From Chthoniobacteraceae bacterium (GTDB lineage Bacteria > Verrucomicrobiota > Verrucomicrobiia > Chthoniobacterales > Chthoniobacteraceae), in assembly GCA_031409655.1 (NCBI GenBank), contig JANNXQ010000217.1, positions 1 through 10,019 of the forward strand: a stretch of 10,019 nucleotides of DNA. The letters run 5' to 3'. The notes below the pieces were generated by a model, which was not told the origin of the DNA, searched no databases, and saw nothing but the letters and a program-made list of their open reading frames with translations. Shown here in pieces: positions 1 through 10,019 of the stretch (positions within the stretch are counted from its first letter, which is position 1; each line of letters opens with the position of its first letter). Both the position numbers and the translations under genes were made by a program.

Positions 1-37
1 GGATCCAAACCTGATCGCCTGGCTGGAAGCGCTCTGA
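1..37 (+). CDS. C-terminal end (partial) of a probable tyrosine recombinase, likely the last recombinase of a RIT element
   Basis: Frame 2 from nt 2 reads D-P-N-L-I-A-W-L-E-A-L-stop (TGA 35-37). This resembles the 'D..L.A(W/F)LE.L*' tail I recall for the last recombinase of RIT elements, and RIT-like end repeats follow. Only 11 codons are visible, so the call depends on context. Confidence 0.5.
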   Translation, partial: DPNLIAWLEAL

Positions 38-113
38 GACGCGGAATCGGCCCGTCAATAATGTGAACTCCAACCCCCGCCCCAAGCCCGCCAGCACAAG
101 CTCCCGCCGCCCA

Positions 114-141
114 ACTCCACATTATTGAGCACTCCACATTA
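114..141. repeat. Direct repeat ACTCCACATTA x2 with 17-bp period (putative recombinase binding sites)
   Basis: Exact 11-mer at 114-124 and 131-141. In addition, TCAATAATGTG (55-65) is the exact reverse complement of CACATTATTGA (118-128). Confidence 0.85.
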
Positions 142-167
142 GTCGATTTATGTGGAGCTCCAGATAA
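132..167. repeat. Inverted 10-bp arms with 6-bp spacer (att-core geometry) overlapping a 20-bp near-perfect palindrome
   Basis: CTCCACATTA (132-141) - GTCGAT (142-147) - TTATGTGGAG (148-157), arms 9/10 complementary. TTATGTGGAGCTCCAGATAA (148-167) is self-complementary except for one mismatched pair. Confidence 0.8.
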
Positions 168-656
168 CTGGACGAGTTCCACAATTTCACCACCGATGCT
201 TTCGCCGCCATCCTATCCGAAGCACGCAAATATCACCTGTGCCTAGCGCTCTCGCACCAATACATCGAGCAGGTCCCGCCGACTGTGCGCGGCGCGGTCT
301 TTGGGAATGTCGGCTCGCTCGTGTCCTTCCGCATCGGCCACTCCGACGCCGAGGAGTTGCACAAGGAGTTCGGGAACACCTACCCGCTGGAAACCTTCAC
401 CGGCCTCGACCGCTACGAAGTCATCGCGCGTCTCGCCGAGAACGGCAGAACGCGCGAGCCCTTCCGCGCAAGAACGCTCCCACCCATCGAGCACCAAGTC
501 GGCCGGCGCGAAAAACTCATCGCCCGCTCGCGCGAAAAATACGCTGCTCCCCGCGCCGAGGTGGAGGAGAAGATCAATCGCTGGCTCGCCGGACGGGAAG
601 ATCCACGCCCGCGTGTGCGCAAAGGCCGCATTCCGTTTCTCCCGGTGAAGCTGTGA
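168..656 (+). pseudogene. 3' fragment of a type IV coupling protein (VirD4/TraG/TraD-like ATPase), truncated at Walker B
   Basis: Frame 3 from 168 reads LDEFHNFTTDAFAAILSEARKYHLCLALSHQYIEQVPPTVRGAVFGNVGSLVSFRIGHSDAEEL... to TGA 654-656. It has the Walker B 'DEF', 'EARKY', 'HQ..Q' and 'GNVG....FR.G..DA' motifs of the T4CP C-terminal domain. An in-frame TAA lies immediately upstream and there is no Walker A. ORF-track entry 285..656 is a sub-fragment of this. Confidence 0.85.
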
Positions 657-686
657 ACAACTCCTGGCCTTTCACTCGTCACCGCG

Positions 687-695
687 TGGTAAAAT
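687..695 (+). promoter_or_regulatory. Putative extended -10 promoter (TG-G-TAAAAT), possibly giving a leaderless relaxase transcript
   Basis: TGGTAAAAT matches TGnTATAAT with one mismatch in a GC-rich background. It ends 6 nt before ATG 702, and there is no clear Shine-Dalgarno sequence. Confidence 0.45.
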
Positions 696-701
696 GCGGG
701 G

Positions 702-1613
702 ATGACGTTCCCCCGCCATCCGCGCTTTCGGCGCGCAGACAAATTTGCTCCGATGGAAATGACCGAGCGCGATACGGAGATTCTTCGCATGGTGAGTCGG
801 CACCGTTTTTTGCGTTCGCATCAGATCGCTGACCTCGTGGGCGGCAGCCGTCAGCAGGTGCTCCGCCGCCTGCAAAGGCTCTACCACCACGGCTATCTGG
901 AGCGCCCCGCCTGTCAGATCGACTACTACCAGAGCCCCGGTTCACGAAGCATCGCCTACGGACTCGCCAGCCGCGGAGCCGCGCACCTTCGCCGCGTGGA
1001 CGACACGCCTTTCTCCCGGCTGGATTGGACTTCGCGCAACCGCTCCGTCAAGCGCCTCTTCCTGCAACACGCGCTCATGGTTTCCGACATCATGGTGGCG
1101 CTGGAAATCGCGTGCCGGCAGCGCGGTGACGTGCGCCTGCTCATTGAGCACGAAATCCCACTCCCCGCCGCGACAAGCAATCAGCGTGCGCCCTTTCAAT
1201 GGACGGTGACGGGTTCGGGAAAGGAAAAGCTCGGCGTCATTCCTGACCGTGTCTTCGCCCTGGAGTTTGGCAGCAAAGGCGAGCGCATCCTCTGTTTCCT
1301 GGAGGCCGATCGCGGCACGATGCCAGTGGAGCGAGCGAAGCACGACGCGAGTTCTATCGCGCGCAAACTCCACGCCTACGCCCTGACCTGGAAGGCCGGC
1401 ATCCACCGCTCCCGCTTCGGCATCTCACGCGTTCGCGTGCTCACCGTCACGTCGAGCGAAGGCAGATGCGGAAACATCTGCAGCGCCGCCTCCACGGTCT
1501 CCGGCGGGCATGGCATCTTTTTGCAAACCGCCACGTCCTGTTTCTCCCCCAATAACTGCCTCGGCCCCGTGTGGCGAAGCGCAGCAAATAAACTCGTGAG
1601 CCTTTTGAACTAA
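702..1613 (+). CDS. Replication-relaxation (Replic_Relax, PF13814-like) family protein, putative non-HUH relaxase
   Basis: 303 aa. N-terminal wHTH-like 'TERDTEILRMVSRHRFLRSHQI...RRLQRLYHHGYL', then 'Y.L...G', 'HALMVSDI', 'PDRVF', 'FLEADRGT', 'KLHAY' and 'RVLTVT', the motif series of this family. Lies next to a T4CP gene. Confidence 0.85.
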   Translation: MTFPRHPRFRRADKFAPMEMTERDTEILRMVSRHRFLRSHQIADLVGGSRQQVLRRLQRLYHHGYLERPACQIDYYQSPGSRSIAYGLASRGAAHLRRVDDTPFSRLDWTSRNRSVKRLFLQHALMVSDIMVALEIACRQRGDVRLLIEHEIPLPAATSNQRAPFQWTVTGSGKEKLGVIPDRVFALEFGSKGERILCFLEADRGTMPVERAKHDASSIARKLHAYALTWKAGIHRSRFGISRVRVLTVTSSEGRCGNICSAASTVSGGHGIFLQTATSCFSPNNCLGPVWRSAANKLVSLLN

Positions 1614-1727
1614 GCGGTCCGCTATCGTTAGAAACTTCGCTTGGTCGGCACCCACCGAGATCGATGCGAGATCCCGGTGTTTGCGCCTTGGAAGTCGCCC
1701 TCGCTTCCGGTAGGCAGTGGGCCGTGA

Positions 1728-3170
1728 ATGAAGACGATCGTTCCATTTGAGACTTGGCAGGTTGCCCTACCGCGCCGTGTGGCGACTTTGGCTCGTATCG
1801 AGCCGCTGCATCGCTTTGAGAGCGGAAAGGCGGCTCGCAATCTCGATCTCGGAAAACATGACCTTCGGACGCTGTCGCTCATGGTCTTCGATGCGGTCAT
1901 TGAACGCATGGGGCTTGCGGCTGGGGCGTCCCAGGACGAAATCTTCGGCGCGCTCAAGCCGCTCATTGTTGCGGGTGAACCGAAGGCAACCGGTCTGCGT
2001 GTGATCGAAGTCGCGACGGCGGTGCTCGACTTCCTGATGAACGAAGACGAACGCCGCCGTGCCTTTCGCGAGGAAATGCGCGTGGTGGAAAATGACGCGC
2101 AAGTCACCCGTGAGGTATATTTTCACTATCTCCAGCAGGTGCTCGGGCCGAATGACGAGCCGCTGTATCGCGCGACCGTGGAGGGCATCAATCTCTACAC
2201 GGGCACGCTCGGACTCGATGTCGAAGACGCGCACGCCGCAAATGCCGCTGTCCTGAAATATCAAATCGGGCGTGGGCGCTTTCGCGAAGCCGTCGCCACC
2301 GCGCGGCAAGCGGTGGCCATCAGCACGGCTTACGAACAGAAGGTGAAGCGCGCGCTGGACATTGCCCGTCGTGATGTGACGCAGGTAAATTGGGCAGAAG
2401 AGATTCTGGCTACGCTGACGGAAGCGCGCGAGCATCTGCGCACTCGGATCGATGCGGACAATGAAATCCTGCGCGCGGTCGAGGAACACGAGGACGATGC
2501 CGAGCTTCACGAACGTGGTCACGTAGCCGAGCTCGTCGGCCACATCCGCGCGTGCCAGTCACGCCATTCATCGCTGCATGTGCTCGTCATCGACGCGAAT
2601 GAATCGTGGCTGGGCGAGCATACCAGGCAGGCGTTCCGGCCGCGCGCGCTCGGGGTGCTGCCGGACCTTGAATCCTCCGTGCTTCGCTCATCTCTGCTGA
2701 TCGCCGAATCGCGGTTAGACGACGTGACAACCTGGCAGCTTACCGCTGCTTTCTTGCCTCCATGGCCGCCCGCCATCGCCGACGGACGACGCTTGATGGA
2801 ACTCCTGCTCGCACCGGTCCGAGAACATGAGGGCGGCGCCACCGATTTGTCGGAGCCGGAGGCCGAGGAGATGACTCAGGCACCGGATCGTTTCGCTGAG
2901 CAGGATTATCGCGACGCAGACAGGTTGCTGGAGTCGGCTCCAGTTTCCGGCACGCTTGTCTCCGAGCTGATCGAGCGCGCCCAGACATCGGGTCGCTCCG
3001 AGACGGTGCAAACGCTCGTCTATCTTCTTGCTCTGCGCGACTACGGCGAGGCGGAGGAGAATGTGGAATATGACGTCGAGGCCGCCGACCGATGCTTTAT
3101 CGCCGAGCCATTCTGGGGTGATGACTTGATCATCCGACCGCCAAGCAAACCCGTGGAGGAACCTGCATGA
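1728..3170 (+). CDS. Wadjet JetA/MksF-like (kleisin-position) subunit, assigned by position and size
   Basis: 480 aa, largely helical-looking, first gene of the coupled operon (ATGA overlap with the next gene at 3167-3170). TGA at 1725-1727 fixes the 5' limit. No diagnostic motif was recognised; the role is inferred from operon architecture. Confidence 0.6.
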   Translation: MKTIVPFETWQVALPRRVATLARIEPLHRFESGKAARNLDLGKHDLRTLSLMVFDAVIERMGLAAGASQDEIFGALKPLIVAGEPKATGLRVIEVATAVLDFLMNEDERRRAFREEMRVVENDAQVTREVYFHYLQQVLGPNDEPLYRATVEGINLYTGTLGLDVEDAHAANAAVLKYQIGRGRFREAVATARQAVAISTAYEQKVKRALDIARRDVTQVNWAEEILATLTEAREHLRTRIDADNEILRAVEEHEDDAELHERGHVAELVGHIRACQSRHSSLHVLVIDANESWLGEHTRQAFRPRALGVLPDLESSVLRSSLLIAESRLDDVTTWQLTAAFLPPWPPAIADGRRLMELLLAPVREHEGGATDLSEPEAEEMTQAPDRFAEQDYRDADRLLESAPVSGTLVSELIERAQTSGRSETVQTLVYLLALRDYGEAEENVEYDVEAADRCFIAEPFWGDDLIIRPPSKPVEEPA

Positions 3171-3901
3171 GCGGAGCAGCCGGCGACGTAGCCGAAAAAT
3201 GCGGCCGCCTCATTCGGTTCGCTCTTTTGCCGCGCCTGATTCCTGCCGATGACGTGGAGTATTTGGAACTGGTTCGGGAATTCCTTTCCAACGCAGCATT
3301 TCAAGAAGTTGCGCATGCCTTCGCGCTCGGGCTCGGCCTCCGCGTCCTCAGCGTGAGCACGCAGTCAGGACTGGTCCTCGGCACGACAGCCGAAAGTCCA
3401 TTTCAGCTTCATCGGGAAGACTACCATTCGCGTATGTCGGCCTCGGATCGCATCGTGCAAGGTCTCATTCACCTGGCCATCGGTGCCTGGTGCTTTCCGC
3501 GCGCGGAAGATTTGCGCGAGGCCGACGACGTGCTGCCGGCCCGAATGACGGTGGAGCAGCTCGTCGAGTATCTGCACACCTTGTGCGAGGAACTTAAAGC
3601 TCGCGAGGAACGCAATGTCGCAGTGCCCAGTGCCGAAGTTCGGATGGCCTGGCAGCACATCCTCGCGCTTGGAAAATACGCCGACAGCACCGACGGGCGC
3701 GGTTCCTTTGCGACGCTTGCTGGAAAAGTCCGCTACGCATTGAATTTCCTCGCCGACCACGGCTTTCTCAGACGCGAAGGCGGTGATGTGCGTCCCGCCT
3801 GGCTCGCACGACCGGCGTTCCGCATTCATGTGCGCGAACTCGCTGGTCACGAGGCTTTTTCGATTGTGACGCGCGCTGCGCAGGAGGCTGCACATGGCTA
3901 G
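3167..3901 (+). CDS. Wadjet JetB/MksE-like (KITE-position, tandem winged-helix) subunit, assigned by position and size
   Basis: 244 aa with GGAGG SD upstream. The C-terminal 'ALNFLADHGFLRREGG...W..RPAF' looks like a wHTH recognition helix plus wing. Overlaps both neighbours (4 bp and 8 bp). Confidence 0.62.
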   Translation: MSGAAGDVAEKCGRLIRFALLPRLIPADDVEYLELVREFLSNAAFQEVAHAFALGLGLRVLSVSTQSGLVLGTTAESPFQLHREDYHSRMSASDRIVQGLIHLAIGAWCFPRAEDLREADDVLPARMTVEQLVEYLHTLCEELKAREERNVAVPSAEVRMAWQHILALGKYADSTDGRGSFATLAGKVRYALNFLADHGFLRREGGDVRPAWLARPAFRIHVRELAGHEAFSIVTRAAQEAAHG

Positions 3902-6900
3902 ATTGCTCCGCCTTCATCTGTCGTGCGTTGGACACAAAGACGCGCGATTCTTTCCGCTCACCCTCGACTTTCGGAATCGGGGCGGTGCGCCGACGGATTG
4001 CGTCGTTTGGCTCATGAACGGCGGCGGCAAATCGTCGCTGATGAACCTGTTCTACTCCACGTTCCTGCCCGAGAGCCGGAAGTTCCTCGGAACGAAAGCA
4101 GAGCATCGTGAGCGGAAGTTGACTGATTACATCAAGGCGAACGACCTCGCTGTCGTCATATCGGAGTGGCAGATGCCGGCTGGGGCTAACTTGTTTTCAC
4201 CGACCCGGATTGTTGGCCAGGTGCTAACTTGGAAGGGCGGCATCGCGACACCGGACGAGGAAACACGCCTCGACCGGGAATTCTTTACCTTCCGCGGCAG
4301 CGAACTCGTGCCGTTTGAGTCGCTGCCATTTCACGGTCTGAATCCGCAGCCGCGGACCACGCTCACCAAAGTCAAAGAGTGGCTCGCCGAGCTAGCAGCG
4401 GAGTATCCTCAATTGGAAGTCGAGCGCGGTGACCAAAGCAGCAAAGGCAAGTGGCGGGATACCCTGGATCGCGTGGGAATCGACACGGAGCTGTTTAACT
4501 ACCACCTGAAAATGAATGTCCGCGAGGGTGGTGCTGCGGAGCTATTCAAGGTGAAGGACACGATGCAATTCGTGGACTTATTCCTTGAGATGGCGCTCAA
4601 CCCCGAGCACGCCGACAAGACGAAGGAGCAGATTGAGGCAGTGCGCGAGAAGCTGTTGCGGCTGCCGCAAAAGGAACGCGAGGAGCGCTTCACGCTAAGT
4701 CTGCTGGGCGAACTTCGGCCACTCGCCCATGAAGCCGCTGCCGCTGGCGCCGCTGAAAACGCCTGGCGTGAACAGCGGCGCGCGAACTTCTTGCTCCGGT
4801 CGGCAATCGAAAATTCGATCAGTGCCACGCAGACCCGCCTTATCGCCACAGCGGGCGACTTAATCACTCTCCGCCAAGATCGCGCCGACGTGCTGACTGA
4901 GAAAAAGAGGCGTCAGGAATACCGGCTCAATTACGACAACCTCGCGCGCGAACTGACCTTCCGCGAAGCCCAACAGGCCGTGGAAGCGGCGAGGAGCGCG
5001 CTGGATGCTGCGGTGTTGGCGAAGAATCTGGCTTCCGCCGGCGTGCGCTTTGCGCGCATTTCTTCGCGTCAGCGGCAACTGGAGGAACTCGTGAAGGCTC
5101 GCGAAGCCGAGTTGATCGAGCAAAAGCCAGTGCTCGATGAGCTGCATGCGCTCGGCGCGGCCTATGAAGCGGCGCTTGGCATTGACCTTGATCGCATTGC
5201 TGCGCTTTCGATAGCCGCCGAGTCCGCGCTGTTGAAGGAAAAGACCGATCATGCCGTCGCAGTGGACCAGCTTACCGAACTACGCGGTCAGCACACGCGG
5301 ACCAATGCCGAGCTTGAGAACGTCAAACGTCGCCTGGTTCAGCGGGATCAGCGCAGGGCTGCCCTGCGCGGAGAGGGCAACTTGCACGCGGACGAGAAGG
5401 CGGCCGAAGCGCTGGTTCGTTGGAGCGAAGAGCAGGAGCGAGTTGAAACAGCCATTGCCATCGCCGAGGCTCGCGTCGAGGAAATCGACAGCGAATTGCA
5501 GACGAGCGGCGAGGAGATCAGCGGGCTGGCCTCGCAGCGCCGAAACGTCGATCAGGACGCATCAATCAAGGATACCGCCTGGAAGCGGGGCGATGCAGAT
5601 GCGCGCGCTCTTCGCGGCCGTCCGCCAATCCGCGAAGTGTTGGCGACAGACTCTCCCGACCTTGATTTTCCGGACCTCGCGTCGCTGCTGCACGAACGGC
5701 AGCGGCAGCTTGAGGATGACTTCATCCAAGGTCGTCTCGATCGCGTGGACGATGAACGCACGCTGCACAGCTTCGACGTGGAGCGTCTTTTTCCGCCGAC
5801 GCGTGAAGTCGAGCTGGTGCTCGCCCATCTGCGCGACCGTGGATTGAAAACCGCGCTGCCCGCGTATCGCTTTCTCGCCACCAACGCGACCGTGAATGGG
5901 ACTGCGCGCCGCTGGCTTGCGAATGAGCCTGCACGCTTCTCGGGCATTGTCGTTACGAGCGAGGAGGAATTTGCGAATCTAAAAGCCGGCACATTTGTCG
6001 TCCCGGGACTGCGCCATCCGGTGCAGGTCACACTCTCCGCCAACCCAGACGAAACCGCCTTGTTGACCGAATCGACGGTGGCGCTTCCGCCCAGCGATGG
6101 CGCGTTCAACTACGAGGCCGCCGCCGAAGGACAGCGCGAGGTTGAAAGCCGACTCGAGAAAGCAAACGAACGGCTCACTGGGATTGCTGCTCGAAAACAA
6201 GAAACTGCTGACGTTGTCCGGGAGCTATCGGCATGGCGCGCCGAGTTTGGCGGCGGCGGGTTGGAGAGATTGAAGACGGAGCGTGATCAACTCCAAGAGG
6301 AACTCGGTCGGCTGGATGAGCAGCTTGCAGCAATGCGGGCATCGGAATCGGCGCTTCGCGTGGAGCGAAGCACCAAGGCAGGGGAGGTGAAGCGGCTTCG
6401 CCCGGATGTCGCCACACTTACAAAACGGCAGGAGCGCCTGCGCGGTTACATCGAAGAATACGAGCAACACGAAGAAGACTGGCTGGAAGAGCGCCGCGAT
6501 AAGATCGCACTCGTTGAGCAGTTCGGCGGGCAGATCGCCGCCCAAGATCGCGAAGTTGGACGGCTGGGAGGAGAAGTCGATGCCCGTAAAGAGAGGGTGC
6601 GAGTTTTGCAAGCTGAGCAACAGGAACGCCTCGGACGACAAGAGGCCATCCGCTTCCGCAACGCGCCGGCGCCTGCAGAGGTCGCTAGCCTTGAGGCAGC
6701 CGAAACGCGGTATCGGAATGCGGTGGATCGTTACGAGGACCGATTTGGCCGGAGCGAACTCGATGGACAAATCAAGCAGGCAGAATCGCATCTCGCCGAA
6801 CTGCGGGAAGAGCATCGCAATCTGTCGCGCGGCCTCTCCGCCGACGACATTGCGCTGGCAGCAAAAAATCCGGATTTTACGGGACAACAGCAGGAAGCGG

Positions 6901-8219
6901 AACGTCAGCATCTAAAGGCTCACACCGTTCACGAAACCGCAGTCGCCCACCTCGCGACAGCCGAGCTTGACCGACCCGATGCCCCAGCCCATAAGCAGGG
7001 CCTCGGTCTGCCGCCCGGCGAGCCGCGACCGACGACGGCGGCCGAATCCAAATCGCGTCGGGATTTCCTCGATGTGGCGATTGAGGACGACACAAGGCGG
7101 ATCACGGAATTCGATGTGCAAATCACGTCAAAAGAAGACGAAGAGAAAACTCTCAAAGCGAGGATCGGCGCGCGCACGCCGCACCTGACAACGCTGGAAG
7201 ACCTGACCGACACGGCCAGCGGCGCAACGCCTTCACTGCCGGCGGACGATGAAATCGTTACGCGCCTCGTTTCCGACGCGAAGCGGCAGACCCAAGTTCT
7301 TGCTCGGGGGCACGAAACCGCGCGGGGCGTCGTGGACGAGCGCATCGACAAGCTGCACGCGGTCACCCGCCATGAAGACTTCGCCGCGATCCCTGTAATC
7401 GCGCGGGAGAGGCTCGCCAACTTGCCGCGCGAGGAACTGATTCAGCGATGCGGCGAGTTCATCCAAAGCCACGAGGCCTGGCAGAAGGTGCTCCGCAACG
7501 AAATCGAGACGCTCAGCAAAGACAAAGATCTCGTCGTCCGCGCTCTCGACGGTGTCGCGGCCTCCGCCGTGCGCTTACTGGGCAAAGCGGAGCGCGCCAG
7601 CATCATGCCGGATGCGTTCCCCGGATGGACCGGACAGCCGTTCCTACGGATAACTGCGCAGCCGATCACAGAGCCAGCCGCGCGCCGTGATCGACTCGCC
7701 GAACTGGTTTCGCGGCTCGTCGATGAAAAGGCGATCCCCACGGGACACGAACTCGCTTCGCGAGCACTTCGAGAGGTCGGCGGTCCGATCCGCGCGACAT
7801 TGCTTAAACCCGAAGATCCGCTCCGGCCTGATCGCCACGACATCACCGAGTTCGGGAGTTTTTCCGGCGGCGAGAAAATGACCGCCGCGATTCTCCTATA
7901 CGTCACGCTCGCGCAACTGCGGATGCGCGGGCGTGACGAGCACACGCGGGAGCGCGAGGCCGGTGTGTTGCTGCTCGACAATCCATTCGGCACTGCGTCG
8001 AAACGGGAATTCGTAGAGCTCCAGCTTCGGGTCGCCCGTCAAATGGGAGTCCAGCTTATCTACACAACCGGCGTGAATGATCTCGGTGCCTTGGATGTGC
8101 TGCCGCGTATTCTGCGTCTCCGTAAACGACACCGCGACCGCCGTTCTGGCGACCTGCTGCTCTCCCAAGAGCCACCGGAAGAGCATGTGGAAGGCGTCCA
8201 GGCGAACCTGCGGACATGA
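3894..8219 (+). CDS. jetC: SMC/MukB-like coiled-coil ABC ATPase (Wadjet JetC/MksB-like)
   Basis: 1441 aa with AGGAGG SD. N-terminal Walker A-like 'LMNGGGKSS' (NGGGKS 4017-4034), two long E/R/A/L-rich coiled-coil arms around a globular hinge-like segment (~5780-6120), ABC signature 'FSGGE' (7860-7874) and Walker B-like 'VLLLDNPFG' (7965-7991). Confidence 0.82.
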   Translation: MARLLRLHLSCVGHKDARFFPLTLDFRNRGGAPTDCVVWLMNGGGKSSLMNLFYSTFLPESRKFLGTKAEHRERKLTDYIKANDLAVVISEWQMPAGANLFSPTRIVGQVLTWKGGIATPDEETRLDREFFTFRGSELVPFESLPFHGLNPQPRTTLTKVKEWLAELAAEYPQLEVERGDQSSKGKWRDTLDRVGIDTELFNYHLKMNVREGGAAELFKVKDTMQFVDLFLEMALNPEHADKTKEQIEAVREKLLRLPQKEREERFTLSLLGELRPLAHEAAAAGAAENAWREQRRANFLLRSAIENSISATQTRLIATAGDLITLRQDRADVLTEKKRRQEYRLNYDNLARELTFREAQQAVEAARSALDAAVLAKNLASAGVRFARISSRQRQLEELVKAREAELIEQKPVLDELHALGAAYEAALGIDLDRIAALSIAAESALLKEKTDHAVAVDQLTELRGQHTRTNAELENVKRRLVQRDQRRAALRGEGNLHADEKAAEALVRWSEEQERVETAIAIAEARVEEIDSELQTSGEEISGLASQRRNVDQDASIKDTAWKRGDADARALRGRPPIREVLATDSPDLDFPDLASLLHERQRQLEDDFIQGRLDRVDDERTLHSFDVERLFPPTREVELVLAHLRDRGLKTALPAYRFLATNATVNGTARRWLANEPARFSGIVVTSEEEFANLKAGTFVVPGLRHPVQVTLSANPDETALLTESTVALPPSDGAFNYEAAAEGQREVESRLEKANERLTGIAARKQETADVVRELSAWRAEFGGGGLERLKTERDQLQEELGRLDEQLAAMRASESALRVERSTKAGEVKRLRPDVATLTKRQERLRGYIEEYEQHEEDWLEERRDKIALVEQFGGQIAAQDREVGRLGGEVDARKERVRVLQAEQQERLGRQEAIRFRNAPAPAEVASLEAAETRYRNAVDRYEDRFGRSELDGQIKQAESHLAELREEHRNLSRGLSADDIALAAKNPDFTGQQQEAERQHLKAHTVHETAVAHLATAELDRPDAPAHKQGLGLPPGEPRPTTAAESKSRRDFLDVAIEDDTRRITEFDVQITSKEDEEKTLKARIGARTPHLTTLEDLTDTASGATPSLPADDEIVTRLVSDAKRQTQVLARGHETARGVVDERIDKLHAVTRHEDFAAIPVIARERLANLPREELIQRCGEFIQSHEAWQKVLRNEIETLSKDKDLVVRALDGVAASAVRLLGKAERASIMPDAFPGWTGQPFLRITAQPITEPAARRDRLAELVSRLVDEKAIPTGHELASRALREVGGPIRATLLKPEDPLRPDRHDITEFGSFSGGEKMTAAILLYVTLAQLRMRGRDEHTREREAGVLLLDNPFGTASKREFVELQLRVARQMGVQLIYTTGVNDLGALDVLPRILRLRKRHRDRRSGDLLLSQEPPEEHVEGVQANLRT

Positions 8220-9274
8220 CATCAATATCCGCCGAGGATTTTCTCGCCCGCCTGAGCCAACTCGGCACCGGGCGAAAACGAATTGGCGCTGACGATTACC
8301 GCCGCGTATTCGCGCAGATGTGCCCCACCCTGCCGGCGCCAGATGCACGCGCGAAACTAGCTGGCTGGCTTTCCTTGCTCGCTGAGACGGACGACATCCT
8401 GCTGCCCAAAGGCAAACGCCTCTACGATCGGTCTGACAGCGGTGATCTGCCGGCTTGGATCGAATTGGTGCGGCCCGACGAGCAACGCGAACCGCTCCCA
8501 GTTGAACCCGAAAGTTTCGCATGGGCGCCGGAACTGCGCTTCGCCTGCACCGTGCGTGATCCGCGGCAACTCCATATCTTGCTCCGCGTGCAGCGCTTTC
8601 TCGCGGAAAGTGGTCGCGAGCGGCCACTCGTGCCGGTGAAGGAGCGCTCCATCGAACTTTTCGGAAAGGAAAAGCGTCTCGAGATGCTCAAAGGCAGCAC
8701 ACTGTTGCAGCCAGGACGGATTTCCTTCGAGTTGTTGCGCTGCTTTCCCGTCCCCCCGCCACTGCTCTGGGAAGCGCCTCCCAGCGACGCCCAAAGCCGG
8801 CCGGTGCTGGCTTTGGAGAATCACAGCACCTACCACTCATTTGCCCGATGGAACCGCGAGGCGCGGTGTTACGCGGCCATCGTGTATGGCAATGGCGACG
8901 CCTTCAAATCTGGCGCCGCGGGCCTCGTCGAGGTCGTGCGCTCGTTGGCCTGGGACGGGCGTCTGTTTTACTTCGGCGACATCGACCCCGAGGGGCTTCT
9001 CATCCCGCTCGCCGCTTCCGCGACGCTTAGCACCGTCGAAATGCCGGCACTGTGCGCTCATCGCGGATGCTACCTCCGCCTGCTCAGTCGCGCGAGTTCT
9101 GTGCCCTTGCCTTCAGGGACAAAACTTGGCCTCCCGGCAGACAGCCGAAGCTGGCTGGGTGATGATCTTGCCGTCGAAGTCGAGGCATGGTTTCAACGCG
9201 GTATTCGTGTGGCGCAGGAACTGGTGGGTTGGGAAGAGTTGCAGCGCGATGCGGCGAACTTCGCCGTGGTTTGA
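8216..9274 (+). CDS. jetD: JetD/MksG-like Toprim-domain nuclease (Topo VI-A-like, DUF2220-like)
   Basis: 352 aa, ATGA overlap with the SMC gene. 'ERSIELFGKEKRL' segment, Toprim Glu 'LALENHSTY' (E at 8816-8818), 'IVYGNG', DxD motif 'YFGDIDPEG' (DID 8978-8986) and C-terminal 'RVAQE' resembling the JetD 'RLEQE' motif. Confidence 0.85.
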   Translation: MTSISAEDFLARLSQLGTGRKRIGADDYRRVFAQMCPTLPAPDARAKLAGWLSLLAETDDILLPKGKRLYDRSDSGDLPAWIELVRPDEQREPLPVEPESFAWAPELRFACTVRDPRQLHILLRVQRFLAESGRERPLVPVKERSIELFGKEKRLEMLKGSTLLQPGRISFELLRCFPVPPPLLWEAPPSDAQSRPVLALENHSTYHSFARWNREARCYAAIVYGNGDAFKSGAAGLVEVVRSLAWDGRLFYFGDIDPEGLLIPLAASATLSTVEMPALCAHRGCYLRLLSRASSVPLPSGTKLGLPADSRSWLGDDLAVEVEAWFQRGIRVAQELVGWEELQRDAANFAVV

Positions 9275-9418
9275 TGCGGGCATTCCTTTGTGCCGCAGCT
9301 TATCCTATAGCTCTGCCTCAATCCGCGCACTTGTGCGACGACCCTTGAAGGCTCACGGGCAACGGATCAAAGCACCAAACTTAACCACAGCTCTGACGGA
9401 CCGATAGCTCGCCGCGAG

Positions 9419-9440
9419 TGGTAGAATTCCCCATGGGAAT
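9419..9440 (+). promoter_or_regulatory. Putative extended -10 (TG-G-TAGAAT) overlapped by an inverted repeat ATTCCC-cat-GGGAAT
   Basis: TGGTAGAAT at 9419-9427, inverted arms at 9426-9431 and 9435-9440, about 65 nt upstream of the primase-like ATG. Confidence 0.4.
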
Positions 9441-9492
9441 CAGCCGCGCATTTCGCACGGCCACCATAGAACCTTCACAGGAGGAAAACGCC

Positions 9493-10019
9493 ATGTCCCG
9501 ATTTGTGGACTTCAAGGCGGTGAAGGCTGCCGTCACCATGCTCCAGGTGCTCGAACATTACGGCCTTGCCGAATCGTTCAAGCGCTCGGGGAACAGCCTC
9601 AGCGGGCCTTGCCCGCTTCATGGGGGAGAGAACCGGACGCAGTTTCGCGTCTCGCTGGAAAAGAACTGCTGGAATTGTTTCGGCACCTGCAAGGGTGGCG
9701 GAAACATTCTGGACTTCGTCGCGCGCAAGGAGGGGTGTTCCCTCCGCGAAGCTGCGCTCGCGTTGTGCGACTGGTTTGAGTTGCCTACGCAGGAGAAGCC
9801 GGCGCGGCCCGCGAGGGACGCCGGAGAACCGCCCACGCCGGAGGCCCCGCCGAAGGCGGAGCCCCGACCGAAGGCAGCGAAGACGAAAGCGCCAACCGTC
9901 GAAGAGGACGGGCCGAACAAGCCGCTCGGCTTCGCGTTGCAGAATCTCGACACCGCACATCCGTATCTGATGGAACGCGGGTTGAGCGCGGAGACGATCG
10001 CGGAGTTTGGCCTCGGCTA
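9493..10019 (+). CDS. CHC2 zinc-finger DNA primase-like protein (5' part, runs off window)
   Basis: AGGAGG SD (9478-9484 region) then ATG 9493: MSRFVDFKAVKAAVTMLQVLEHYGL...GPCPLHGGENRTQFRVSLEKNCWNCFGTCKGGGNILDFVARKEGCSLREAA... This is the DnaG-type zinc-binding domain (CPxH...CFGxC, G.GN..DFV...EG.S..EA). A Pro/Ala/Lys/Glu-rich linker and 'YLMERGLSAETIAEFGLG' follow. No stop before the window end, so it is missing from the ORF track. Confidence 0.88.
   Translation, partial: MSRFVDFKAVKAAVTMLQVLEHYGLAESFKRSGNSLSGPCPLHGGENRTQFRVSLEKNCWNCFGTCKGGGNILDFVARKEGCSLREAALALCDWFELPTQEKPARPARDAGEPPTPEAPPKAEPRPKAAKTKAPTVEEDGPNKPLGFALQNLDTAHPYLMERGLSAETIAEFGLG

Follow-up and report, generated by a model that had tools for sequence, protein, structure and literature searches.

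This locus raises two questions: whether four adjacent genes in a 10,019 bp stretch of DNA from a Chthoniobacteraceae bacterium (contig JANNXQ010000217.1, positions 1 to 10,019, here called the window) form a known or a new type of Wadjet system, and how their SMC motor could work with an asparagine in place of its catalytic glutamate.

The four-gene operon and its Wadjet type

The window was found to carry four co-oriented reading frames, each uninterrupted and overlapping the next by 4, 8 and 4 nt in succession (Table 1). The initial annotation had described these intact, overlapping frames as a kleisin-KITE-SMC-Toprim system, possibly a divergent subtype beyond Wadjet types I-III. The reading frames were confirmed, and a public contig of 8199 bp (run X1, possibly the source of this DNA) corresponds to positions 1295-9493 with zero differences. 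Among the sequencing runs listed as containing this DNA, none was of RNA. The genes make up the type III Wadjet set in the order A-B-C-D. No sigma-70-like promoter was found in 1560-1800, and the window contains no tRNA and no repeats above chance-level pairs. Very probably this is an intact type III Wadjet operon (JetABCD) from a non-Bacillota branch, and an integrative mobile element carries it as defence cargo.

Table 1 Features of the window and the evidence for them.
Feature	Position	Strand	Evidence or remark
Type IV coupling-protein-like gene, 3' part	168..656	+	weak Pfam TraG-D_C match
Replication-relaxation family relaxase gene, left of cargo slot	702..1613	+	Pfam PF13814 E 2.3e-25
jetA (ORF1), type III kleisin, 480 aa	1728..3170	+	PADLOC JetA3 PDLC00567 E 4.8e-80
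jetB (ORF2), KITE subunit with two winged-helix domains, 244 aa	3167..3901	+	remote homologue of JetB3/DUF6063
jetC (ORF3), type III SMC ATPase, 1441 aa	3894..8219	+	PADLOC JetC3 PDLC00579 E 1.1e-144, aa 3-1419
JetC Walker A region LMNGGGKS (aa 40-47)	4011..4034	+	
JetC MNxxEGG (E211), about Q-loop position	4512..4532	+	candidate substitute carboxylate, weak lead
JetC ABC signature FSGGEK (aa 1323-1328)	7860..7877	+	
JetC Walker B LLLDNPFG (aa 1359-1366)	7968..7991	+	Asn1363 in place of catalytic Glu
jetD (ORF4), Toprim nuclease, 352 aa	8216..9274	+	PADLOC JetD3 PDLC00594 E 1.7e-63
CHC2 zinc finger/DnaG-type primase gene, right of cargo slot	9418..10019 (cut by contig end)	+	Pfam PF01807 E 1.3e-12

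Three of the four proteins gave near full-length matches to type III profiles of PADLOC, that of ORF1 covering aa 12-470 and profile positions 11-480 of 504; no Pfam or NCBIfam match above cut-off was obtained for ORF1. JetC has a split ABC head and a long coiled-coil middle. JetD matched Pfam JetD_C at 24.1 bits against a cut-off of 22, and a motif alignment of 14 JetD proteins located E201, D255-x-D257 and a C-terminal QE, with E201, D255 and D257 kept in all 14. Type I and II models were far weaker: in the window JetD1 was matched at E 4.7e-5 at best and JetA1, JetB1 and JetC1 not at all, the sole type II match was JetD2 at E 0.0046, and JetC1 PDLC00512 had no match in genome G000. Two motifs quoted in the initial annotation, NGGGKS and DNPF, are indeed in ORF3, but 'ERS.E.FG.EK' (ERSIELFGKEK) is in ORF4 and not in ORF3.

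ORF2 had no match in PADLOC at E<=1, in Pfam (DUF6063 included) at E<=0.1 or in NCBIfam, and PDB sequence searches with ORF2 and with JetC gave no informative match. Its AlphaFold2 model (pLDDT 93) was compared by fold: all eight Foldseek matches at E<=0.001 were MukE/JetABC chains, the top ones being MukE-MukF and JetABC entries, and the best VIA-align match was 8dk1_E, a chain of PA14 JetABC (Z 8.9, rmsd 4.1, 168 residues aligned). The ORF2 profile aligned with that of four Bacillota DUF6063 JetB proteins (hhalign probability 96.9, E 1.8e-10, 202 columns), and a transitive link is provided by relatives of ORF2, 23 of 135 of which match JetB3 PDLC00573 and 11 of 135 DUF6063. On profile and predicted fold, ORF2 is a KITE protein homologous to type III JetB. 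Purifying selection is indicated by its comparison with the 87% identical relative L012 (pS 0.61, pN 0.078).

When JetA residues 285-400 were modelled with two copies of JetB, the complex scored 0.73 (best of three controls, 0.00); the mark used for this score is attained by 116 of 157 solved pairs and 2 of 215 mismatched pairs. In the predicted complex the two JetB copies are enclosed by residues 310-368 of JetA (nt 2655-2831); the runs share at least 50% of contacts at a partner pLDDT of 43-60, and the mark may have been passed through likeness to the solved MukEF/JetAB. The designation of JetA as a probable kleisin draws on the profile match and on this model of its middle segment only. No named JetA or JetB family had been recognised in the first two proteins; ORF1 is in fact a JetA3, and ORF2, although unmatched by PADLOC as anticipated, is a remote homologue of JetB3/DUF6063.

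In a tree of JetC heads the window fell within type III (support 0.926) and there within a non-Bacillota branch (0.936; both FastTree local supports). The expected closeness to type III was borne out by this tree and the three profile matches, and a new type outside I-III was ruled out by the profile matches, the ORF2 fold and the tree. Since JetA3, JetC3 and JetD3 are matched and ORF2 is homologous to JetB3/DUF6063, the locus is another type III Wadjet and not a new type.

Two branches of type III

The gene order was D-A-B-C in 6/6 Bacillota loci and A-B-C-D, as here, in all 14 non-Bacillota loci of sufficient length, some of which are close kin. JetB was detected by PADLOC or DUF6063 at E<=1e-5 in 6/6 Bacillota loci and 0/9 non-Bacillota loci, even where the locus's own JetA3 matched at 1e-250 or better, and JetB is only about 12% identical between the branch profiles. 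Judged from these matches, the failure of ORF2 to hit JetB3 seems to reflect missing coverage in the models, and because JetB is missed by PADLOC a strict four-gene rule would not call the locus complete. In three related loci RefSeq names JetD only (2/3) or nothing (1/3), which agrees with the earlier suspicion of a branch missed or called by JetD alone, although defence profiles do find three of the four proteins.

The A-B-C-D branch was encountered in Actinomycetota, Pseudomonadota, Acidobacteriota and Verrucomicrobiota, and 577 JetB representatives at 50% identity gave profile matches at E<=0.001. The actinobacterial relatives mentioned in the initial annotation exist on Rhodococcus and Streptomyces plasmids (JetA identity about 29%), but not as a three-gene cluster, four genes being present in the three actinobacterial or proteobacterial clusters examined. 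Closer to the host the system is patchy, with JetC3 PDLC00579 matched in 2/150 other genomes of the family and JetA3 PDLC00567 in 0/300 other genomes of the phylum.

The locus shares with Wadjet type III the number and size of its subunits, and with Bacillota type III the Asp-Asn Walker B, the N-x-x-E-G motif and the E, DxD and QE motifs of JetD. It differs from the latter in gene order, in a JetB below JetB3/DUF6063 detection and in a separate JetC head clade; at the H-loop position JetC reads YTTGVND, whereas Pontibacillus JetC has LTAHKEE, with His. Type I systems (JetABCD of E. coli GF4-3 and P. aeruginosa PA14, MksBEFG of C. glutamicum) likewise have the order A-B-C-D, a single KITE of about 240 aa and a Toprim nuclease, but their JetC is about 1130 aa long with an Asp-Glu Walker B in 9/9 strong matches. 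Long SMC arms are shared with type II (Neobacillus vireti), whose tandem KITE of about 390 aa contrasts with the single KITE of ORF2; a channel-less hinge is described for types II and III in the accessible text of PMC12647877. Figures and supplements of Doron 2018, Deep 2022 and Krishnan 2020 may already show both gene orders and the Asp-Asn motif. No test of a non-Bacillota type III system was found in the accessible literature searched.

The Walker B asparagine of JetC

In hhalign (probability 87.7) the Walker B sequence LLLDNPFG aligns with DEAF of type I JetC; where JetC here has Asn1363, the catalytic Glu is present in type I JetC and in SMC. Asp-Asn was found in 121/121 aligned JetC homologues. 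It is shared by the Bacillota branch, and at loci found through JetA, JetB or JetD it was present in 15/16, the remaining one having Asp-His. Across these alignments the Asp-Asn Walker B is a type-III-wide trait. A quirk or decay of this locus is ruled out, as the trait is class-wide and the reading frames are under purifying selection. Among viral contigs, 58 pattern matches yielded no confirmed relative of type III JetC.

It was considered whether a Q-loop swap, Gln to Glu211, might offset the change of Glu to Asn1363. N208, E211 and G212 are kept in 112/112 aligned rows, an N-x2/3-E-G motif is present also in five Bacillota JetC, and EGG matches the 'EQG' of SMC in a by-eye alignment. The swap is weakly supported, since the SMC hhalign stopped short of the region, and E/D-G is likewise found near this position in type I JetC, whose Walker B is normal. 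A single-sequence AlphaFold2 model of the N-terminal head had pLDDT 37 and was left unused.

If the operon works like types I and II and like the type III operon of B. thuringiensis, JetA would bridge two JetC heads and bind a JetB dimer by its middle segment, and the complex would load on DNA and perform ATP-dependent loop extrusion. On a small closed circle extrusion would be completed and the JetD Toprim dimer licensed to cut, the chromosome and linear DNA being spared, so that the cell would lose plasmids that enter it and competing elements that have excised, if these are smaller than about 50-100 kb. Most likely, JetC with its Asp-Asn Walker B would hydrolyse ATP slowly or use a relocated base, for which E211 and D1396 are conserved candidates. 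Counter to this explanation, JetC is without the very Glu whose change to Gln in type I Wadjet abolishes hydrolysis and cleavage.

The same effect in type I, together with the constancy of Asp-Asn, would suit a different reading, in which the A-B-C-D branch forms a subtype of its own, 'III-B', with a hydrolysis-poor head that serves as a DNA clamp or sensor in the ATP-bound state and a JetD that is triggered by a DNA feature or phage DNA and not by circle size. This resembles the proposal for Lamassu LmuB, which has a natural E-to-Q and may hydrolyse little ATP according to the accessible text of PMC10586767, and it would fit the separate clade, the other gene order and the divergent JetB. It is nonetheless quite unlikely, as full-length arms, kleisin and KITE are retained as in a loop extruder, and the Bacillota branch, equally Asp-Asn, includes one type III operon (its own JetC sequence lying outside the comparison) that restricts plasmids. 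That operon, from B. thuringiensis, blocked plasmid transformation in B. subtilis and required the JetD Toprim Glu (accessible text of bioRxiv 10.1101/2022.10.04.510915), and is given as type III in the accessible text of bioRxiv 10.1101/2025.03.10.642339. By analogy, we infer anti-plasmid activity for the A-B-C-D branch by circle-dependent cleavage as above.

The host element and its cargo slot

The operon lies between genes with counterparts on contig C102 of genome G000. The relaxase gene is 88% and the primase gene 95% identical to the C102 copies, the latter running on into a Toprim domain; the coupling-protein-like gene is homologous to its C102 counterpart from about nt 170 onwards, and upstream of this the reading frame is open on C102 but closed in the window. 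In sister elements the relaxase-primase slot holds type I RM, type III RM, Gabija, IetAS or nothing, and by these contents it is a swappable defence hotspot of a mobile element. A small excising element with an anti-circle nuclease might target itself.

The kleisin-KITE-SMC layout is shared with MukBEF/MksBEF, and MukE is nearest to the JetB fold by Foldseek. Given this fold, and since Wadjet and Muk systems are confusable according to the PADLOC authors (accessible text of PMC9252829), the operon might be read as working mainly as an accessory condensin of the MksBEF kind, or as a maintenance or exclusion factor of the mobile element, with JetD incidental. This is highly improbable: unlike those systems, the genes include a translationally coupled JetD nuclease with catalytic residues intact across the operons of 14 four-gene relatives, save a broken L032 copy, the distribution is patchy and mobile, the slot is a defence hotspot, and the host genome already encodes a canonical SMC.

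A broader proposal, starting from the preferred type III reading, is that type III comprises two subtypes, of which the one found here is widespread, under-called for want of a JetB model and apparently untested, that its motor relies on a relocated carboxylate, either E211 close to the Q-loop or D1396 beyond the H-loop, and that it is spread by a family of relaxase-primase integrative elements, in a hotspot for defence genes that is as yet undescribed; taken together, these points are tentative and rather doubtful.

In the sample examined, Bacillota JetB was all that the PADLOC JetB3 models found, so that complete type III systems of other phyla would fall to 'Wadjet other' and be undercounted, and a JetB profile built from alignment A2 would close this gap. 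Of the Wadjet types, type III has been characterised least, and its motor is without the Glu needed by type I; as a compact intact operon with close relatives the locus is a reasonable system in which to study how SMC motors manage without that residue. For the bacterial family, further defence genes might be sought in the relaxase-primase slot.

Identification of the type III Wadjet operon

The window comprises contig C217 of genome G000 in full. Its four co-oriented open reading frames, which overlap consecutively by 4, 8 and 4 nt on the forward strand, were compared with profile libraries. ORF1 was matched by the PADLOC JetA3 model (E 4.8e-80, aa 12-470), ORF3 by JetC3 (E 1.1e-144, aa 3-1419) and ORF4 by JetD3 (E 1.7e-63, aa 15-349), and the type I and II models gave only weak JetD matches among the four ORFs. 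JetD_C was the sole Pfam family above cut-off, an NCBIfam scan of the four ORFs gave zero matches over cut-off, and ORF2 was matched by nothing in PADLOC, Pfam or NCBIfam. JetD retains E201, D255 and D257, which were conserved in all 14 aligned type III JetD proteins. The operon is a real, intact type III Wadjet. The kleisin-KITE-SMC-Toprim architecture and the closeness to type III proposed in the initial annotation are supported by the JetA3, JetC3 and JetD3 matches and by the assignment of ORF2 as a KITE protein; its further suggestion of a subtype outside the three known types is incorrect, as the JetC head also falls within type III.

A public contig of 8199 bp spans positions 1295-9493 with zero differences, and the DNA may derive from the run that contains it. 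The GC content (61% vs 63% for the genome) and a tetranucleotide distance at the 77th percentile among 769 genome slices do not mark the window as foreign, and the nearest named homologues are from Chthoniobacterales, Luteolibacter and Terriglobia. Contigs carrying the operon at ~96% identity were found in sequencing runs from two other studies (X5 and X9). These diverge from the window at ~1666-1676 and 9237-9274, i.e. at the operon edges, and thus represent near-identical cassettes placed in other flanks.

The strict PADLOC definition is reported to require all four genes, any other case being called 'Wadjet other' (PMC9252829), so the window operon would be under-called there. RefSeq naming in three related plasmid loci gave JetD alone in two and nothing in the third. 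The expectation that annotators miss such operons, or name only JetD, therefore holds for RefSeq in these three loci and, in PADLOC, for ORF2, but not for JetA, JetC and JetD, which PADLOC models match.

Features of the operon, its relatives and the defence slot
Feature	Location	Strand	Description
ORF1 (JetA)	window 1728-3170	+	open frame
ORF2 (JetB)	window 3167-3901	+	open frame
ORF3 (JetC)	window 3894-8219	+	open frame
ORF4 (JetD)	window 8216-9274	+	open frame
Slot cargo	window 1614-9417		Wadjet III, between Replic_Relax and DnaG-type primase genes
Slot cargo	G000:C102:56183-64516 (same genome)		type I RM + ParE-family gene
Slot cargo	G012 (other genome)		Gabija
Slot cargo	G002 (other genome)		type III RM + PDC-S06 + DrmD-like helicase
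Slot cargo	G416 (other genome)		IetAS
Slot	G420 (other genome)		empty
Defence-type neighbour genes of operon relatives	L001:1440-3476; L009:4646-7753; L027:917-4336
Bacillota JetC with degenerate Walker A	L034:12116-16675; L035:12175-16527; L086:12385-16965

The KITE subunit and the JetC ATPase site

A family profile of ORF2, built from 45 close relatives, retrieved 577 cluster representatives at E<=0.001. When 135 family members were scanned singly, 23 matched the JetB3 model PDLC00573, 16 matched PDLC00571 (best E 6e-10) and 11 matched Pfam DUF6063; the profile itself aligned with four Bacillota DUF6063 JetB proteins over 202 columns (probability 96.9). In a Foldseek search with the AlphaFold2 model of ORF2 (pLDDT 93), all eight matches at E<=0.001 were MukE/MukEF and JetABC chains, and the best VIA-align match, modestly above background, was a PA14 JetABC chain (Z 8.9, rmsd 4.1, 168 residues). 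These profile links and structural matches identify ORF2 as the KITE subunit JetB. A complex of JetA 285-400 with two JetB copies was modelled with a score of 0.73 vs 0.00 for the best control, above a mark that 116 of 157 solved pairs attain, as do 2 of 215 mismatched ones; at least half of the contacts agreed between runs, and partner pLDDT was 43-60. In this prediction JetA 310-368 spans both KITE copies, as the kleisin middle does, and the score may arise by likeness to solved complexes.

The Walker B motif of JetC reads LLLD-N-PFG, and in a profile alignment N1363 coincides with the Glu of the type I DEAF motif. Asp-Glu was present in 9/9 strong type I matches, and for type I the E-to-Q exchange is reported to abolish hydrolysis and cleavage (bioRxiv 10.1101/2022.10.04.510915). 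Asp-Asn-Pro occurred in 121/121 rows of a search that was seeded on the Walker B region and hence biased; among loci found via JetA, JetB or JetD, free of that bias, Asp-Asn occurred in 15 of 16 and Asp-His in one. Thus the Walker B Asn is a type III trait; the literature passages retrieved by a search for it make no mention of it. Two invariant acidic residues, E211 (112/112) and D1396 (121/121), could stand in for the missing Glu, to judge from conservation. The case for E211 is weak, since an acid-Gly pair lies close to this position in type I JetC too. In several type III JetC proteins from Bacillota, a degenerate Walker A (NMGGKG, NTLGKS, NGDGKG) occurs together with an Asp-Asn or Asp-His Walker B. 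SMC-like proteins of 1100-1570 aa in the host's family (loci L046-L057) weakly match JetC1 (E 1e-20 to 1e-37), and no Walker B was found by pattern in their last 200 residues.

In Wadjet, JetA, JetB and JetC are described as kleisin, KITE and SMC, with JetD as the Toprim effector (PMC10586767). Three Bacillus operons, including that of B. thuringiensis, are reported to block small plasmids in a manner dependent on the JetD Glu; in an excision assay, circles of 10-35 kb released from the chromosome were restricted by Wadjet, an effect that wanes at 50-100 kb, and E. coli Wadjet cuts circular, not linear DNA (bioRxiv 10.1101/2022.10.04.510915). The B. thuringiensis operon is assigned to type III, described as molecularly still largely uncharacterised (bioRxiv 10.1101/2025.03.10.642339). 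By analogy, the window operon very probably restricts small circular DNA by extrusion and cleavage; that it works in a clamp or sensor mode is unlikely, and a condensin or element-maintenance role is very improbable.

Two branches of type III systems

Bacillota loci found via JetD had the order D-A-B-C in 6/6, a seventh record with a short DUF6063 gene alone being excluded, and their JetB proteins all matched the PADLOC JetB3 models (E 6e-38 or better). The order A-B-C-D, as in the window, was found in 14/14 non-Bacillota loci long enough for four genes; several of these loci are closely related to one another, jetC is split in one, and in L084 and L085 JetB was assigned by position and size. 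None of nine non-Bacillota JetB proteins matched the JetB3 models at E<=1e-5 (best 7e-5), and the Salmonella and Polaromonas JetB were missed despite JetA3 matches of E 4e-303 and 3e-250 there.

JetC heads were compared in a FastTree phylogeny (42 rows, 439 columns). It took in every fourth sequence from a set of 111 full-length homologues, together with 11 loci, the window among them, and three type I outgroups; L086, L033 and L032 were omitted. Supports were 0.926 for type III, 0.985 for Bacillota and 0.936 for non-Bacillota. This split is indicative, since the branches are long and the independent Bacillota lineages number just three. In literature searches confined to open-access full text, neither the split in gene order nor the gap in JetB models nor the defence slot came up. 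Broken type III copies were also seen: half of jetB fused to the jetD end with jetC missing (L028:1-1021), jetC in two pieces (L032:4198-8624) and jetC without its start (L033:12162-12683).

A defence slot in a putative mobilisable element

To the left of the operon is a Replic_Relax relaxase gene and, farther out, a coupling-protein-like gene of which the 3' part is present; to the right is a CHC2/DnaG primase gene. Contig C102 of the same genome has these flanks at 87-94% nucleotide identity, there enclosing other cargo of 8.3 kb, namely a type I RM system; beyond the slot lie DUF6166, RadC, a TrwB-like ATPase and a serine recombinase. Slots of related genomes were sampled at L112, L113, L115 and L116; among eight sister regions, four had both flanking genes (three filled, one empty) and four had no primase within the stretch. 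The gap between Replic_Relax and primase genes is a variable defence slot. In a third copy of the element, which is decayed (G000:C187:121181-122480), the relaxase and primase persist as frameshifted remnants separated by ~600 bp, and cargo is absent.

A search of 150 other family genomes recovered the element's relaxase in 23. The operon is rare among the host's kin: in sets with many incomplete genomes, ORF2 was found in 0/40 relatives, JetC3 matched 2/150 family genomes and JetA3 0/300 phylum genomes. The relaxase and primase were absent from all inspected loci of the operon's relatives, which, with the ~96% copies diverging at the operon edges, indicates that the operon is not tied to the element. 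Relatives outside the element adjoin genes for an OLD-family ATPase-nuclease, a type I restriction endonuclease and a UvrD-like helicase.

The sister element (G000:C102:46013-67408) covers at least 21 kb, its left end lying outside this stretch, in the order coupling protein, relaxase, cargo, primase, DUF6166, RadC/JAB, two unknown genes, TrwB-like ATPase and serine recombinase, and has the appearance of an integrative mobilisable element. The coupling-protein-like gene, whose frame is open on C102, is broken at ~nt 170 in the window copy (window 1-170), and owing to this interruption the Wadjet-bearing copy may be immobilised. Speculatively, the element, if excised as a circle below 50-100 kb, could itself be attacked by the Wadjet that it carries.
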